A stretch of DNA of 64,000 nt, taken from sequence record MK962758. One strand, given 5' to 3'. Below, piece by piece: positions 50,946 through 64,000 of the stretch. The stretch comes from Shigella phage JK55. Position 1 is the first letter of the stretch; every line of letters starts with the position of its first letter. A program made the position numbers and the translations under genes. The notes beneath the pieces were generated by a model. The model saw nothing but the letters and a program-made list of their open reading frames with translations. It was not told the DNA's origin and did not search any database.

Positions 50946-50968
50946 GGAGCCTCTTCGGAGGCTCTTTT
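50946..50968 (+). terminator. intrinsic terminator
   Basis: gagcctc-ttcg-gaggctc followed by tttt. Confidence 0.55.
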
Positions 50969-57839: not shown

Positions 57840-58231
57840 TTAAGTTAAACCAAAAACAGTTAGAGTGGATTAAAGATTACGCCTCAGAGTGTGGCTCTTG
57901 CGAAAAGAATCACGTAAGATACTCAACATTCCACACGGTCTTCACATTGTACATCAGCGACAACGTTCTAAGTGATTCTGTAGAAGATGGTGTAGCATTA
58001 CCTAATGAATTACTTGATAAACTGGCTGTAGTCTCTGGAACTTGGTCTGAAGAGGATGGTCATGAGCTATCTGACGATGTTATCTTCTACACCCTTGAAA
58101 ACATCATGAATCCAGAGTACATTATGCTAATGACTTGCGCACAAGATTGTGTACCATTACAAAACTTCATTAAAGAGCACTGTGAAGAATTTATTACTAA
58201 ACAGGTTCCTTGTCAGGTGGTGTTTGAATGA
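57836..58231 (+). CDS. hypothetical protein
   Basis: 131-aa ORF. Confidence 0.4.
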   Translation: MIKLNQKQLEWIKDYASECGSCEKNHVRYSTFHTVFTLYISDNVLSDSVEDGVALPNELLDKLAVVSGTWSEEDGHELSDDVIFYTLENIMNPEYIMLMTCAQDCVPLQNFIKEHCEEFITKQVPCQVVFE

Positions 58232-58527
58232 GTAAAACAATTCGAAGAAAAGGTTTAAAGAACGTTCATGGGCTTTATGAGTGGAGAAATGAGGTACGTA
58301 ACAGAGAAAACGCTTCAGATGTCTACTTCCATTCTGATATGATGTCCAGAAAAGGTGGCTCTTATGACTTTACAAGCCAACCTTGTAGAGAGATTAAGAA
58401 GGCTACTAAACGTCTTACAAGAACACAAATAAGGCAGCTTTCTAAGACATCTTTCTTAGATGAATACTTTGACATTGACAGCAAGTCTCCAAAGAAAGCT
58501 GCTCAGAGCACTTATATGTATTGGTGA
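58228..58527 (+). CDS. hypothetical protein
   Basis: 99-aa ORF. Confidence 0.4.
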   Translation: MSKTIRRKGLKNVHGLYEWRNEVRNRENASDVYFHSDMMSRKGGSYDFTSQPCREIKKATKRLTRTQIRQLSKTSFLDEYFDIDSKSPKKAAQSTYMYW

Positions 58528-58536
58528 GGTAACTAG

Positions 58537-59022
58537 ATGAATTACATGGAGATTAGACCATTTGACACAGCTAATGGTGAAGGGGTTCGTGTAAGCCTCT
58601 TCGTAGCTGGCTGTAAACATCACTGTGAAGGCTGCTTTAACAGGGAGTCTTGGAAGTTTAATGCTGGTAAAGTATTTACTTATGCAAACCTCTACGGCAT
58701 CATTAAGTTAATGGATGATGAGGCCATCACTGGGTTGTCAATACTTGGTGGGGAGCCTCTGGATGATAGAAACATTCAAGAGGTCACCAACATATGCAAA
58801 CGTATTAAAACTGTTTATCCAGAAAAGTCTATATGGCTTTGGACAGGTTTTCAACTGCACGAAAAAATCCACTTAGATGTGATGAAATATGTTGACGTGG
58901 TGATTGATGGTAAGTATGATTCATCTAAACCAACAGTTAAACCATATCGTGGTTCTGATAACCAAAACCTCTGGAGGAAAGAGTATGGATGGCAAGGCGA
59001 TTGTCAATGGCGAGCAGAGTGA
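58537..59022 (+). CDS. nrdG: anaerobic RNR activating enzyme (radical SAM)
   Basis: CKHHCEGC radical-SAM cluster motif; downstream of nrdD. Confidence 0.85.
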   Translation: MNYMEIRPFDTANGEGVRVSLFVAGCKHHCEGCFNRESWKFNAGKVFTYANLYGIIKLMDDEAITGLSILGGEPLDDRNIQEVTNICKRIKTVYPEKSIWLWTGFQLHEKIHLDVMKYVDVVIDGKYDSSKPTVKPYRGSDNQNLWRKEYGWQGDCQWRAE

Positions 59023-59260
59023 TTATTCTGGCAAATGGACTTACGACATCAACAAGTTAGATGCTTGGATGATTTATACGAGAGAAAAATTTGGTGCAAG
59101 TTCATTATGTGCTCTTGCAACGATGGTGAAGAACGTTACCTTTGACATTCATGACTCAGATAAGTTTGGAGACTTCTACAGGATTCAAAACATCAGAGAA
59201 GGTATGACTCCAATTGGTATCACTGAAGAAGAACTTCATAAGTTCTGTATTAAACTTTAA
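58985..59260 (+). CDS. hypothetical protein
   Basis: ATG 58985 with RBS ggagg; overlaps nrdG 3' end in another frame. Confidence 0.35.
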   Translation: MDGKAIVNGEQSDYSGKWTYDINKLDAWMIYTREKFGASSLCALATMVKNVTFDIHDSDKFGDFYRIQNIREGMTPIGITEEELHKFCIKL

Positions 59261-59275
59261 TGAGAGAGACTAAAA

Positions 59276-59542
59276 ATGGGAATTTTAGGTAATATGAAAG
59301 CTGGATTCTTGAAAGCACTGGAAAAAGCAGCAGCAATCATTTCTATGACTGGAAAGCAGGTTGGTGTCGATGCTTCAGCAGTTGCACAAGTTCTTGCAAG
59401 CCAAATTGAACAGCAGCCTTACATCTACGTAGGACGTGGAAAAGGTGGTAAAAAACAAGCACATCGACCAACTGGTGCAGCAGCAATTAAACGTGCAGCT
59501 AAGAAAGCTCGTAACCGTAAACGTAATAAGAAGGCTAAATAA
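59276..59542 (+). CDS. small protein with highly basic C-terminus
   Basis: C-terminus AAKKARNRKRNKKAK. Confidence 0.4.
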   Translation: MGILGNMKAGFLKALEKAAAIISMTGKQVGVDASAVAQVLASQIEQQPYIYVGRGKGGKKQAHRPTGAAAIKRAAKKARNRKRNKKAK

Positions 59543-59544
59543 TC

Positions 59545-59865
59545 ATGAGCAAAGTTTATAACACTCGCAAATTACAGATTTTCGTACTGTGCCAGTTTAT
59601 GGCTAAAGAATACAACTTCTACTATTGTGGTACAGGTTTTATTAGTGATGATGATGGCTCATACCTCCCATTCAAAGAAGCTGTAAAACTCTTTAATGAA
59701 GAGAAAAGCTCTAAGAAAGATATTGAAAAGGTTAAGCTAAATTACAGCAAGAAAGATAAGAAGATTATCTGCCTAGATAACTTTGTAAAAGTTACTGGAG
59801 AAGCAAAAGAGTTTATGAATGAGAGTGAGATTTCATTCACAAGCATCTTGAAAGTAGCTCAGTAA
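59545..59865 (+). CDS. hypothetical protein
   Basis: 106-aa ORF followed by terminator. Confidence 0.4.
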   Translation: MSKVYNTRKLQIFVLCQFMAKEYNFYYCGTGFISDDDGSYLPFKEAVKLFNEEKSSKKDIEKVKLNYSKKDKKIICLDNFVKVTGEAKEFMNESEISFTSILKVAQ

Positions 59866-59876
59866 ACAGATACTAT

Positions 59877-59905
59877 AGGGGAACTGTAAAGGTTCCCTTT
59901 TTATT
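59877..59905 (+). terminator. intrinsic terminator
   Basis: gggaac-tgtaaag-gttccc followed by tttttatttt. Confidence 0.6.
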
Positions 59906-59916
59906 TTGGAGATGAT

Positions 59917-60432
59917 ATGTATCTGTCAAACCTGAAACGTTCTGCTGCAATGTCAGTGTTAAGACTCAGCTTTGAGGAACGTCAAGAGTTCATTGACTCC
60001 CACCAATACGACCCCTCAAACTCCAATCACATGATTCTCTGGAATCATGAAAGTACTCGTGAAAGAGCACTATTCCGTTATTACCCACACTATACTATAG
60101 ATAATCTGTATGAATTGTTTGTTGTGAAGAACACCATTACAGTGCTCAATAAACTTTGCAGATACACAGGTAGTCAATCCTTCACATTAGGCCACCACAA
60201 ACCTGTTACAAAGGGTGGTGAGCATCACTGTGCAAACTGGTTTATCCAGACTAAACTTGATAATCAGAATCAAGGAGATAGCCTTCTAAGCACCCCTAAG
60301 ATGACCTATGAAGAGCAAGAGAAATATATCAAAAATAATATGCCAGAGGTGCTTGACAACAACTATACAGATTTGGCAATATCTCTCCTGTTGAAGTTCG
60401 AGACAGTTTATAGGGCAACTTACAATGGCTAA
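59917..60432 (+). CDS. HNH-like nuclease
   Basis: LGHHKPVTKGGEHHCANWFIQTKLDNQNQGD resembles a His-Me finger. Confidence 0.4.
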   Translation: MYLSNLKRSAAMSVLRLSFEERQEFIDSHQYDPSNSNHMILWNHESTRERALFRYYPHYTIDNLYELFVVKNTITVLNKLCRYTGSQSFTLGHHKPVTKGGEHHCANWFIQTKLDNQNQGDSLLSTPKMTYEEQEKYIKNNMPEVLDNNYTDLAISLLLKFETVYRATYNG

Positions 60433-60703
60433 AGAGAAGTGGGAAATTTTACCATTAGTGAGTGAAGGTGGTAATGGTTGTGAGATGTACATGATACGTG
60501 GTCATGTTCCAGAACCAATTGCACTTGAGATGGTAAACAATTTTACAGATGGCTCTTACAAAGATTTAGGAGAGCCAACTATAAAGCATCAATGGGTCAA
60601 ACCTGTACCAGACAGCACAGGTAACTGTAGTGTACTTTATCACGTTGTAGACCCTGCAAAATGCAAATCTGCAATGGCAGTAACAAACATAACCTTTGAT
60701 TGA
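60425..60703 (+). CDS. hypothetical protein
   Basis: 92-aa ORF. Confidence 0.4.
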   Translation: MAKEKWEILPLVSEGGNGCEMYMIRGHVPEPIALEMVNNFTDGSYKDLGEPTIKHQWVKPVPDSTGNCSVLYHVVDPAKCKSAMAVTNITFD

Positions 60704-60716
60704 GAGAGAGAAAACT

Positions 60717-61598
60717 ATGAAAACTGTTATTGAAGTCGTTGTCACCGCACAAGAGAAATTCTTCCACACAGAAAAATTTAATATCATCCAATTCCCATCT
60801 GGAGAAATTGGTGGAAACTTCTCTGAAGATTTTGTTAAGTTTACTGAGCGTAATGCTGGTAAGATTGACAATGTTATACTTACTGTGCAGGGATATGATA
60901 AAGATACACTGTTTGCATTAGCTTTGGCTAAGGATGCCGTTGACAGTCTTGTTCCACATAAATCAGCGATGAAAACCGTTGTTTTCGGGTTCTTACCGAA
61001 TGCTCGATATGACCGACATATGTTCAAAGGTGATTCAGCAGCACTGAAAGCTTTTGCCAACCTCGTTAATGCAATGGGCTTTGATGCAGTATGTGCTCTT
61101 GACCCTCACAGCAATGTTGCAGAAAACTTATTTAAGTGCTTTCAGGGCATGAAGCAAAAAGATGTAGCAGCACACTTTGCAAGTGACCCACGCATTGATT
61201 TCTTGGTAGCCCCAGATGCAGGTGCAGCTAAGAAGACTGAAGAGACTGCTAAAGAGGTGGATAAACCATATATCACAATGTCTAAAATGCGTAACCTTAA
61301 GACTGGTGAAATTACTGGTATGCGAATCCTTGATGATGTTGATTTGACCGATAAAACTGTTATGATTCTCGACGATATCTGTGATGGCGGTCGAACCTTC
61401 ATAGAAGCAGCTAAACATCTTCGTGAAGCAGGTGCAAAACGTGTGGAACTCTATGTAACTCATGGCATTTTCTCTAAAGGTGTTGAAAGCTTACTTGACA
61501 ATGGTATTGACCATATCTACACTACAAACACTTTAGGTGAAGCTAAAGACCGTGGCTTAACACATTATGGCCAAGTTACTGTAGCAACCATTGATTGA
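60717..61598 (+). CDS. ribose-phosphate pyrophosphokinase family protein (Prs-like; candidate ADP-ribose pyrophosphokinase)
   Basis: PRPP/ribose-phosphate binding loop VMILDDICDGGRTF, flexible-loop-like NARYDRH; ATG 60717 with RBS gagagagag. Confidence 0.8.
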   Translation: MKTVIEVVVTAQEKFFHTEKFNIIQFPSGEIGGNFSEDFVKFTERNAGKIDNVILTVQGYDKDTLFALALAKDAVDSLVPHKSAMKTVVFGFLPNARYDRHMFKGDSAALKAFANLVNAMGFDAVCALDPHSNVAENLFKCFQGMKQKDVAAHFASDPRIDFLVAPDAGAAKKTEETAKEVDKPYITMSKMRNLKTGEITGMRILDDVDLTDKTVMILDDICDGGRTFIEAAKHLREAGAKRVELYVTHGIFSKGVESLLDNGIDHIYTTNTLGEAKDRGLTHYGQVTVATID

Positions 61599-61607
61599 AA
61601 CTTTATA

Positions 61608-61628
61608 GGGGCTTGAAAGCCCCATTTT
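61608..61628 (+). terminator. hairpin terminator
   Basis: ggggct-tgaa-agcccc followed by atttt. Confidence 0.45.
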
Positions 61629-61643
61629 GAGAGAGATTAAAAG

Positions 61644-63425
61644 ATGACTAAATCACTTTATGCAGTACCAGCAGGTTTAAACGCAGATGCTTACAAATCT
61701 GGTCATGTTTACCAGTATCCTAGTGCAACAGATTACTTGATGTTCAACCTGACACCACGTAGCGACAAATGGTTTAACAGCCCTTTAGCAATTGATGGTG
61801 TAGTGGCTTTTGGTATTCAACGTTTTGTTAAAGATTACTTGATAGACCACTGGAACGCCACTTTCTTTGAACGTGATAAAAAAGAAGCAATTGACGAAAT
61901 CTTAGAAGTTATGAATGGTGTTCTGGGGAAAGATGCTATCGGTCGAGAGCATTGGGAAGCACTTCACGACTTAGGTTATCTACCAGTTGAAGTGTACGCT
62001 GTAGAAGAAGGCACAGTTGTCCCGATGCGTGTCCCAATGATTGTCTTCCAGAACACTGTTTCAGGTTTCCATTGGGTAGCAGGTTATCTAGAAGACGCTT
62101 TCTCTGCTGAGATTTGGAAGGCTTGCACCATTGCAACTATTGCATTGCACTACAAACGTATCTGTAAGAAGTGGGCTGACCTCACTTGCGACAACGACTT
62201 GCATTTACCTTATCAGTGCCATGACTTTGCTATGCGTGGTATGTCCGGCTTTACTGATGACGCATTCAACGCTGTAGGACACTTAACCAGCTTTAAAGGG
62301 ACTGATAGCTTCCCTGCTGTATACACGGCTAAACGTATCTATGGGCAGACCTATCCAATCTCTGATATTGGAAGCTCTGTACCAGCCACTGAACACTCTG
62401 TAATGTGTGCAAACATTGCTTGGGAAGGTGGTAACGAGTTGGTTGAAGAAGAAAGACGATTTAAAGGTGAGTTACAAACCTTCCGTCGTTTCTTAACAGA
62501 AACTTACCCAACTGGTATTGCAAGTATTGTTTCAGACACTTATAACTTCTGGAGAACTGTGTCAGAAATCTTACCAGCACTTCGTAAAGAAATTATGGAA
62601 CGTGATGGTAAGCTGGTAATTCGCCCTGACTCTGGAGACCCTGTACATATTGTCACAGGCTATAAAGCAATCCACTTAGAGTGTGCTAAGAAGGCTTATT
62701 ATGAGCACCTAAGCAAGCTGGAAGCTAGTGACACAATGTTGAATGCTGTTCTGAACATGAAGCTTGAAAACATCAACTATGGTATTGCTGGATGGCTACT
62801 GTCAGAAGGCTACGAAATGGTTGTTGACAGAGAAGACTTTGAAGTTGCTGATACAGTGATGTTGAAAAATGCTTATATGGTTGGCTCTGCAAACGTTGTA
62901 ACACGTCCTGTAGCAGAGATTGATGGAGCTATTAAGACCCTGTACAACATCTTCGGAGGGACTATTAACTCTAAAGGGTTTAAGGTACTGGATGAGCACA
63001 TCGGCCTTATCTATGGTGACTCTATCACGCTGGAACGTGCAAACGAAATCCTGAAGCGTCTGTATGAAATGGGTTTTGCAAGCTCTAACGTAGTGTTTGG
63101 TGTAGGCTCTTACACTTACCAGTACATGACTCGTGACACCTTTGCATTTGCTGTCAAAGCAACTCTTGCAAGCATTGGTGGTAAAGAGATTATGCTTGCA
63201 AAAGACCCTAAAACAGATAGTGGTGTTAAGAAATCTGCCTTTGGTGGTGTAGCACCTATGTGGGATGGTGATAAGCTGAAAGCTGTAGATGGCTATGGAT
63301 TCCAGAGTTTTGCAGATGTACTTGACCACCAAGCTTGTGCTTTACGTTTAGTCTTTAGCGACTCTGAGCAGTTCGGTTATACAACTCTTGGAGATATTCG
63401 AAATAATATTGACAAGCAGCTTTAA
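61644..63425 (+). CDS. nicotinamide phosphoribosyltransferase family protein (NAMPT/NadV-like)
   Basis: AYKSGHVYQYP, LPVEVYAVEEGTVVP, CHDFAMRGMSG, GTDSFPAVY, PATEHSVM, VSDTYNFW, IRPDSGDP all match conserved NAMPT blocks. Confidence 0.85.
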   Translation: MTKSLYAVPAGLNADAYKSGHVYQYPSATDYLMFNLTPRSDKWFNSPLAIDGVVAFGIQRFVKDYLIDHWNATFFERDKKEAIDEILEVMNGVLGKDAIGREHWEALHDLGYLPVEVYAVEEGTVVPMRVPMIVFQNTVSGFHWVAGYLEDAFSAEIWKACTIATIALHYKRICKKWADLTCDNDLHLPYQCHDFAMRGMSGFTDDAFNAVGHLTSFKGTDSFPAVYTAKRIYGQTYPISDIGSSVPATEHSVMCANIAWEGGNELVEEERRFKGELQTFRRFLTETYPTGIASIVSDTYNFWRTVSEILPALRKEIMERDGKLVIRPDSGDPVHIVTGYKAIHLECAKKAYYEHLSKLEASDTMLNAVLNMKLENINYGIAGWLLSEGYEMVVDREDFEVADTVMLKNAYMVGSANVVTRPVAEIDGAIKTLYNIFGGTINSKGFKVLDEHIGLIYGDSITLERANEILKRLYEMGFASSNVVFGVGSYTYQYMTRDTFAFAVKATLASIGGKEIMLAKDPKTDSGVKKSAFGGVAPMWDGDKLKAVDGYGFQSFADVLDHQACALRLVFSDSEQFGYTTLGDIRNNIDKQL

Positions 63426-63440
63426 AAGTATATGATAAGA

Positions 63441-63462
63441 GGCTCCTACGGGAGCCTTTTTA
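63441..63462 (+). terminator. intrinsic terminator
   Basis: ggctcc-tacg-ggagcc followed by ttttt. Confidence 0.6.
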
Positions 63463-63478
63463 ATTTCTGGAGAAGATT

Positions 63479-63814
63479 ATGAAAATCAAAGAAATGAACA
63501 TTAACGTTGTCCTAGAAGAACGTTGGGAGAACATTAAGAAACCTGAAGATGGTAAAAAGTTCCTTAACAAAATTTTAGTAGCAGCTAAAGAAGAACTGAC
63601 TGGCAAGATTGCAGCAGCAATCACAATAAAAATCTGTGTAAAAGGTCTTCCACAACATCACCAATTTGCACTTGACGAGTTTAAAGAAAGCTTCTACAAT
63701 CCAAACAAACAGATGTTTGAAAGTAACTTTGCAGTGTCTACAAGTATCGTCCATGACAGAAGCTTTATCCTTTACAAGAATATGAGAGGTGAGTCATGCA
63801 AGCATATTGGATAG
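63479..63814 (+). CDS. hypothetical protein
   Basis: 111-aa ORF. Confidence 0.4.
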   Translation: MKIKEMNINVVLEERWENIKKPEDGKKFLNKILVAAKEELTGKIAAAITIKICVKGLPQHHQFALDEFKESFYNPNKQMFESNFAVSTSIVHDRSFILYKNMRGESCKHIG

Positions 63815-63972
63815 AAATTTTACTGTCACTTGGTAGTGTAGCAGTATTTGTTTACCTTCTTTGCAAGTACTATGCAGAGCACAAGAAGTGTGATTACTGC
63901 AACGGGGAAGGGTACACAAGAGCAGGTTGTTGCCCTATTTGTGGTGGTTCTGGTAAAATGTTTAATAAGTAA
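63796..63972 (+). CDS. small membrane-anchored zinc-ribbon protein
   Basis: 58 aa; hydrophobic N-terminus then CDYC...CPIC; below ORF-track cut-off. Confidence 0.35.
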   Translation: MQAYWIEILLSLGSVAVFVYLLCKYYAEHKKCDYCNGEGYTRAGCCPICGGSGKMFNK

Positions 63973-64000
63973 TTTAACAGTAAACTAAGAGGAAAGTATT

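Follow-up and report, generated by a model that had tools for sequence, protein, structure and literature searches.

The Prs-like and NAMPT-like genes of Shigella phage JK55 as a probable Felixounavirus copy of the NARP1 operon

INTRODUCTION

Two adjacent genes of Shigella phage JK55 (sequence record MK962758), one encoding a protein of the Prs family and the other a protein of the NAMPT family, are analysed here within a stretch of 64,000 nucleotides (nt), called the window below. A pair of this kind, Adps and Namat, makes up NARP1, discovered on the operon bas63_0079-bas63_0080 of Escherichia phage JohannRWettstein (BASEL phage Bas63) (Osterman et al., bioRxiv 10.1101/2024.02.11.579819, hereafter the NARP1 paper). 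In that work, a Bas63 mutant deleted for both genes (Δ79-80) gave plaque numbers about 20-fold lower on SIR2-HerA-carrying cells and no longer restored nicotinamide adenine dinucleotide (NAD+), and ADP-ribose pyrophosphate (ADPR-PP, m/z 720.010) was only observed with wild-type Bas63 when the defence system was present. Since Bas63 Adps purified poorly, homologues from Bacillus phage SPbetaL1 (SpβL1) and Mycobacterium phage DyoEdafos were used in vitro. Among them, the gp79 homologue of SpβL1 produced ADPR-PP from ADP-ribose (ADPR) and ATP, and a homologue of gp80 produced NAD+ from ADPR-PP and nicotinamide (NARP1 paper). In a later study, SpβL1 Namat was found to prefer ADPR-PP in vitro (PMC12774641). 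NARP1 cancels type I Thoeris, DSR1, DSR2 and SEFIR, and not type II Thoeris.

Several described systems share parts of this architecture. Known accessory genes of NARP1 encode the Macro-domain phosphatase Adpp, in NARP1-AP (Adps-Adpp-Namat, Vibrio phage Gary), and the RyR-domain glycosidase RyDEP, in the RyDEP-containing NARP1 of DyoEdafos; both variants have the same two core enzymes. NARP2 (Nampt plus nicotinamide mononucleotide adenylyltransferase, NMNAT; Vibrio phage KVP40) has a NAMPT-family enzyme, an NAD+ product and an anti-defence purpose in common with NARP1. It differs in that it uses phosphoribosyl pyrophosphate (PRPP) and needs NMNAT, and its Nampt forms a separate clade in phages without Adps. 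Cellular Prs (E. coli b1207) and NadV/NAMPT salvage rely on the same folds and the same pyrophosphoryl- and phosphoribosyl-transfer chemistry, whereas the characterised phage homologues have shifted from ribose-5-phosphate and PRPP to ADPR and ADPR-PP.

RESULTS

The gene pair is nearly identical to the founding NARP1 operon

The ORF (open reading frame) listing of the window shows the two genes as intact ORFs, adjacent on the + strand and separated by a 45-nt spacer (Table 1). The longest version of the first ORF would start at TTG 60696 and encode 300 amino acids (aa). ATG 60717 is preceded by GAGAGAGAG and agrees with the start annotated for the 293-aa protein in Bas63 and Escherichia phage bumzen, the two closest phage records. 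Because of this agreement with the relatives, the interval 60717-63425, given to a Prs-like and NAMPT-like pair in a first-pass annotation of this DNA, is right. The Pfam and PHROG assignments of both proteins are far beyond chance.

A megablast search with positions 60000-64000 matched 258 phage records, of which essentially all belong to Felixounavirus or to close relatives of it, with bumzen as the top match (99.5% DNA identity over this interval). Bas63 shows 95.3% DNA identity across the locus. As judged from these matches, the window is a Felixounavirus genome. Gene order is common to Bas63 and bumzen: NrdD, small ORFs, NrdG, small ORFs, two upstream ORFs, the Prs-like gene, the NAMPT-like gene, rIIA and rIIB. 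The nucleotide-metabolism block at whose end the first-pass annotation placed the pair is real, with NrdA/B, glutaredoxin, NrdD and NrdG upstream.

Comparison with the Bas63 operon in particular revealed equal protein lengths (293 and 593 aa), the same intergenic hairpin, homologues of gp77 and gp78 upstream and the rIIA region downstream. Differences are limited to 12 (Adps) and 8 (Namat) amino-acid substitutions and to an extra small ORF, bas63_0081, which follows namat in Bas63 and does not occur in the JK55 window. The NARP1 of SpβL1 shares with JK55 the adps-namat order, the catalytic residues and one of the selectivity motifs described below (SCH), with much lower identity (29-34% for Adps and 47% for Namat). 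Its two genes abut, without intergenic hairpin, and its Namat lacks the insertions found here at residues 259-271 and 340-427.

The Prs-like protein falls in the Adps clade

The first protein carries the Pfam domains Pribosyltran and Pribosyl_synth and matches PHROG 619 at 1.5e-97. It is 96% identical (281/293, no gaps) to Bas63 gp79 (bas63_0079). Identity to SpβL1 Adps is 34% (E 1e-27), against 26% (E 1e-15) for the more distant E. coli Prs b1207. Among Prs models, only the broad subfamily model TIGR01251 was passed (136 bits for a cut-off of 113). Every Prs equivalog cut-off was failed, the best score being 112 bits versus the 296 required by NF002095, and the subfamily model NF002320 gave 98 bits for a cut-off of 297, where E. 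coli Prs scores 533.

The Prs motif VMILDDICDGGRTF quoted in the first-pass annotation is present at residues 215-228, together with ARYDR (96-100) and DPHS (129-132). K190 aligns with K162 of SpβL1 Adps, the residue mutated to inactivate that enzyme; Bas63 Adps itself was one query for, and a defining member of, the published Adps clade (NARP1 paper). Taken together, these pairwise and profile comparisons place the protein in the Adps clade, and the failed equivalog cut-offs argue against its being a bona fide Prs.

The NAMPT-like protein carries the sequence motifs of the Namat selectivity clamp

For the second protein, Pfam returned NAPRTase (3e-35) and NAMPT_N, and PHROG 448 was matched at 6e-202. 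Identity to Bas63 gp80 (bas63_0080) is 99% (585/593, no gaps). Its best matches in the Protein Data Bank (PDB) are 9W5W and 9W5X (E about 6e-128), far ahead of human NAMPT (about 1e-40); according to the depositors' paper, both entries are SpβL1 Namat (PMC12774641). A comparison with Prs and NAMPT on one side and Adps and Namat on the other, as proposed in the first-pass annotation, came out in favour of the latter pair for both proteins.

The same paper defined a Namat-specific 'selectivity clamp', made of a helix motif (SCH) and a loop (SCL), and reported the SCH motif absent from Nampt (PMC12774641). A SCH motif including Y490 and Y494 is found here, with Met at its third Φ position, where Asn or Val is usual. 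A more distant homologue from Vibrio phage D479, left unclassified here, reads GGGLLQQLDRD at this place. In the SCL, K42 aligns with R40 of SpβL1 and is directly followed by W43, and this pattern of a lysine and the next residue has been published for Bas63 Namat. The loop is thus predicted to supply the adenine-stacking residue (Lys/Tyr, then the stacking residue), although the arrangement differs from the SCL Arg40 of SpβL1. These features assign the protein to the Namat clade, encoded beside adps.

Residues known to act in catalysis or ligand contact are conserved: D15, Y17, F195, R198, D221, A248, H251, R327, D329 and G458-D459. H251 stands in a block that is invariant in the alignment, and we take it to be the catalytic histidine of the family, from the alignment and by analogy with H247 of human NAMPT. 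R327, D221 and F195 are the equivalents of Arg306, Asp215 and Phe189 of SpβL1 Namat, in which R306 is essential for activity. A conserved catalytic histidine is reported in the paper on Namat, which does not state its residue number. The catalytic residues of both enzymes (R327, D221, F195 and H251 of Namat, K190 of Adps) hence appear intact.

Proposed activity and alternatives

At the sequence level, these results establish orthology to the Bas63 operon together with conservation of the catalytic and selectivity residues. We consider adps-namat of JK55 to be the Felixounavirus copy of the NARP1 operon, with a probability of about 0.95, and expect its enzymes to behave as their Bas63 orthologues do, in NAD+ rebuilding and anti-defence. 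During infection, defences with SIR2, TIR or SEFIR effectors would cleave NAD+ to ADPR and nicotinamide. Adps would then move pyrophosphate from ATP to ADPR, and Namat would exchange the pyrophosphate of the resulting ADPR-PP for nicotinamide, giving NAD+ directly, with no need for PRPP, nicotinamide mononucleotide (NMN) or NMNAT. Because the operon is a 96%/99% identical orthologue of the founding one, the finding is already known: the novelty implied for the pair in the first-pass annotation was overrated, as this is the published NARP1 system itself. The preference of that annotation for NARP1 over salvage is supported by the identity to gp79 and gp80, the Namat motif and the search for NMNAT described below.

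Some observations weigh against this assignment. The in vitro biochemistry comes from the SpβL1 and DyoEdafos homologues, with identities of 27-34% (Adps) and 45-47% (Namat). SpβL1 Namat retains about half of the PRPP-to-NMN activity of human NAMPT in vitro (PMC12774641), so that some NMN production may occur as a minor side activity of Namat. Neither Pfam nor NCBIfam NF006629 separates Namat from Nampt, and the two insertions of Felixounavirus Namat are missing from the crystallised SpβL1 enzyme.

The pair could alternatively serve classical salvage, in which the Prs-like protein would make PRPP, the NAMPT-like protein NMN, and host NadR/PncC would complete NAD+. The Pfam, PHROG and NCBIfam names and all GenBank annotations speak for such a role, as does the conversion of PRPP and nicotinamide to NMN by SpβL1 Namat just mentioned. 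Nearly all the annotated GenBank records listed keep the classical names because Pfam and NCBIfam cannot separate Namat from Nampt. Profile libraries were accordingly rejected as a means of distinguishing Namat from Nampt or Adps from Prs, and the only informative results were the SCH motif and the missed Prs equivalog cut-offs. Both of these count against salvage: the Prs-like protein reaches 98-112 bits where Prs equivalog models need about 296 or more, and the adenine-clamp motif of Namat is present. Likewise, the SpβL1 gp79 homologue yielded no product from the Prs substrate, and in a ΔpncC ΔnadR host Bas63, with its orthologous operon, still overcame SIR2-HerA (NARP1 paper), which rules out the NMN route for Bas63. 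On this orthologue the PRPP-to-NMN alternative kept open by the first-pass annotation has thus failed.

Nor was a phage NMNAT found. No Pfam match to CTP_transf_like, NUDIX, Macro or RyR was obtained among 61 small or unannotated ORFs of the window, the remaining window ORFs being structural, replication or ribonucleotide reductase (RNR) genes by the annotation of the closest relative, bumzen. No NMNAT or Nudix gene was detected among the 35 ORFs scanned in bumzen beyond the window. The first-pass statement that the window holds no visible NMNAT therefore stands, and the wider search that it proposed, carried out on bumzen, gave the same answer. We judge classical salvage very unlikely as the main function. 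The same scans speak against membership in NARP2, together with the adjacent Adps and the SCH motif, and the absence of Macro and RyR domains from the flanking ORFs distinguishes the locus from NARP1-AP and RyDEP-extended NARP1.

The position of the pair, directly downstream of NrdA/B, NrdD and NrdG at the end of the RNR/thymidylate block, would also suit a general nucleotide-supply module that boosts PRPP for nucleotide synthesis without any link to defence. Such a role would leave unexplained that 97% of Adps-clade genes in the published phylogeny have an adjacent Namat gene. In addition, defence-free cells infected with Bas63 contained no excess NAD+, and ADPR-PP was undetected (bioRxiv 10.1101/2024.02.11.579819), as fits a pathway running only on NAD+ breakdown products. 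A mere supply function is barely credible in view of these data, and the NARP1 assignment is retained in what follows.

Predicted transcription signals of the unit

The unit had been described as two genes bracketed by terminators. Hairpins with T-runs indeed lie close to the proposed places, and the pair is adjacent and co-oriented, yet four tightly packed genes, not two, are found between them, since two further ORFs precede adps-namat (Table 1).

A terminator consensus scan of positions 58000-64000 was not enriched (2 found versus 4.0 expected from shuffles), so that the terminators are called by their anatomy, their intergenic position and their fold z-scores. Similarly, promoter-like sites showed no clear enrichment over shuffles and are called by consensus match only. 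The upstream hairpin would close the NrdG-containing unit, and the site at 59848 is a possible promoter of the four genes, which may be transcribed as one unit from this host-type signal. The site at the 3′ end of namat is probably the promoter of the next unit. Both boundaries look alike, with a sigma-70-like candidate abutting a hairpin, behind which come a T-run, GGAG and ATG. At both, termination and the initiation of the following unit appear to overlap. Further predicted intergenic terminators on the + strand, at 50946 and 57247, split the nucleotide-metabolism block into units.

Within the adps-namat spacer, a GC-rich hairpin folds better than any of 200 shuffles (0/200). The identical hairpin occurs in Bas63; Erwinia phage Prophecy and phage SUSP1 lack it, the latter having an HNH endonuclease gene in its place. 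This hairpin may act as a leaky terminator or mRNA-stability element setting the Adps:Namat ratio. The initiation regions of adps (60700-60720) and namat (61627-61647) are near-identical, TTGAGAGAGA...A(A/C)(G/T)ATGA, with 17/21 positions shared.

Table 1. Positions of the genes, protein motifs and predicted signals (window coordinates unless a record is given).
Feature	Position	Strand	Remarks
Sigma-70-like promoter candidate TTGAAA-17-TACTAT	59848-59876	+	consensus match 9/12; abuts upstream hairpin
Terminator-like hairpin	59877-59899	+	9-bp stem, then TTTTTATTTT; fold -12.1 kcal/mol, z -1.75
171-aa ORF	59917-60432	+	PHROG 3500; first gene of unit; no known function
92-aa ORF	60425-60703	+	PHROG 4726; no known function; overlaps 171-aa ORF by 8 nt
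adps	60717-61598	+	Prs-family ORF, 293 aa; predicted ADP-ribose pyrophosphokinase
Intergenic GC-rich hairpin GGGGCUUGAAAGCCCC	61608-61623	+	in adps-namat spacer (45 nt), then AUUUUG; fold -12.6 kcal/mol, z -3.54
namat	61644-63425	+	NAMPT-family ORF, 593 aa; predicted nicotinamide ADP-ribose transferase
Selectivity-clamp loop (SCL) TPRSDKWF	61752-61775	+	K42 aligned to SpβL1 R40, W43 next
PATEHS block	62382-62399	+	contains H251; invariant in alignment
Short Namat insertion	62418-62456	+	residues 259-271, by comparison with SpβL1 and DyoEdafos Namat
Active-site strand IRPDSGDP	62619-62642	+	R327 = SpβL1 R306, D329 = D308
Large Namat insertion	62661-62924	+	about 88 aa, residues 340-427, versus about 11 residues in SpβL1 Namat
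Selectivity-clamp helix (SCH) GSYTYQYMTRD	63105-63137	+	residues 488-498, Y490 and Y494 included
Promoter-like site TTGACA-16-TATGAT	63409-63436	+	match 11/12; within namat 3′ end, abuts terminator
Terminator-like hairpin	63437-63460	+	10-bp stem and T-run; fold -17.2 kcal/mol, z -3.6; end of unit
bumzen_95, 'putative phosphatase'	MN850635.1 71696-72481	+	261 aa; N-terminal Macro domain PF01661; outside window

The two upstream ORFs

Homologues of the 171-aa ORF are found in Stephanstirmvirinae phages (about 150 kb), where their neighbours are genes for a UvrD-type helicase and anaerobic RNR, and neither adps nor namat is annotated within 5 kb. The ORF was rejected as a NARP1 accessory gene on these grounds. 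It contains a weak HNH-like motif, HHKPVTKGGEHHCANW...NQNQGD. The 92-aa ORF ends 13 nt before adps; it was rejected as an accessory as well, since the ORF that takes its place in Erwinia phage Prophecy has no detectable similarity to it.

Near the 171-aa homologue of one Stephanstirmvirinae phage, Klebsiella phage phi1_175008, an NMN adenylyltransferase and a PnuC-like transporter are annotated. These genes represent a different phage NAD+ route, of the NadR/PnuC type named in the discussion of the NARP1 paper.

The Namat insertions and an unlinked Macro-domain gene

The large insertion of Namat directly follows the active-site strand IRPDSGDP. By tblastn it was only found inside Namat genes, in 253 records that are essentially Felixounavirus and close relatives by their organism names; as far as these names indicate, it is restricted to Ounavirinae. 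It diverges faster than the rest of Namat, with 48% identity in some Citrobacter phages. A Pfam search of the insertion returned no domain (best match DUF4528, E 0.03), and a single-sequence AlphaFold2 model of Namat was not used (mean predicted local distance difference test score, pLDDT, 33; predicted template modelling score, pTM, 0.21). The insertion could act as a lid, or as a regulatory subdomain, and so change how substrates are handled.

Outside the window, bumzen_95 encodes a Macro-domain protein (30.3 bits for a cut-off of 22) with a C-terminal extension of some 110 aa; the gene is conserved across about 200 Felixounavirus records. To Adpp of Vibrio phage Gary, whose role as the ADPR-1''-phosphate phosphatase of NARP1-AP has been validated by experiment, the protein is 28% identical (164 aligned positions, E 5e-14). 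As judged by this similarity, bumzen_95 could dephosphorylate ADPR-1''-phosphate. In bumzen, the gene is found some 7.5 kb downstream of namat; the published survey scanned two genes on either side of NARP1, and a gene of this type would therefore be missed by it. That Felixounaviruses run an extended, unlinked NARP1 with this Macro-domain protein and that, separately, the Namat insertion alters substrate handling is, for the two together, a speculative and rather doubtful proposal. If the former is true, the Felixounavirus NARP1 could also defeat aRES-type defence.

The PHROG profiles also point to rearranged forms of the pair. PHROG 12872, a profile of 547 positions, matches Adps at positions 32-224 and Namat at 236-534, which suggests that natural Adps-Namat fusion proteins exist. 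PHROG 16547 matches only the N-terminal half of Namat and PHROG 15800 only the C-terminal half, suggesting split namat genes in some phages.

DISCUSSION

With NARP1, a phage can undo the effect of numerous unrelated defences that deplete NAD+, all at the same time: type I Thoeris, DSR1, DSR2, SIR2-HerA and SEFIR. This role was established in 2024 on the same operon in the sister phage Bas63, and the work of Osterman et al. on NARP1 reportedly also appeared in Nature in that year. For JK55, the practical value lies in correct annotation: the two genes should be named adps and namat instead of 'ribose-phosphate pyrophosphokinase' and 'nicotinamide phosphoribosyltransferase'. The assignment further predicts that JK55 would plate on hosts carrying NADase defences.

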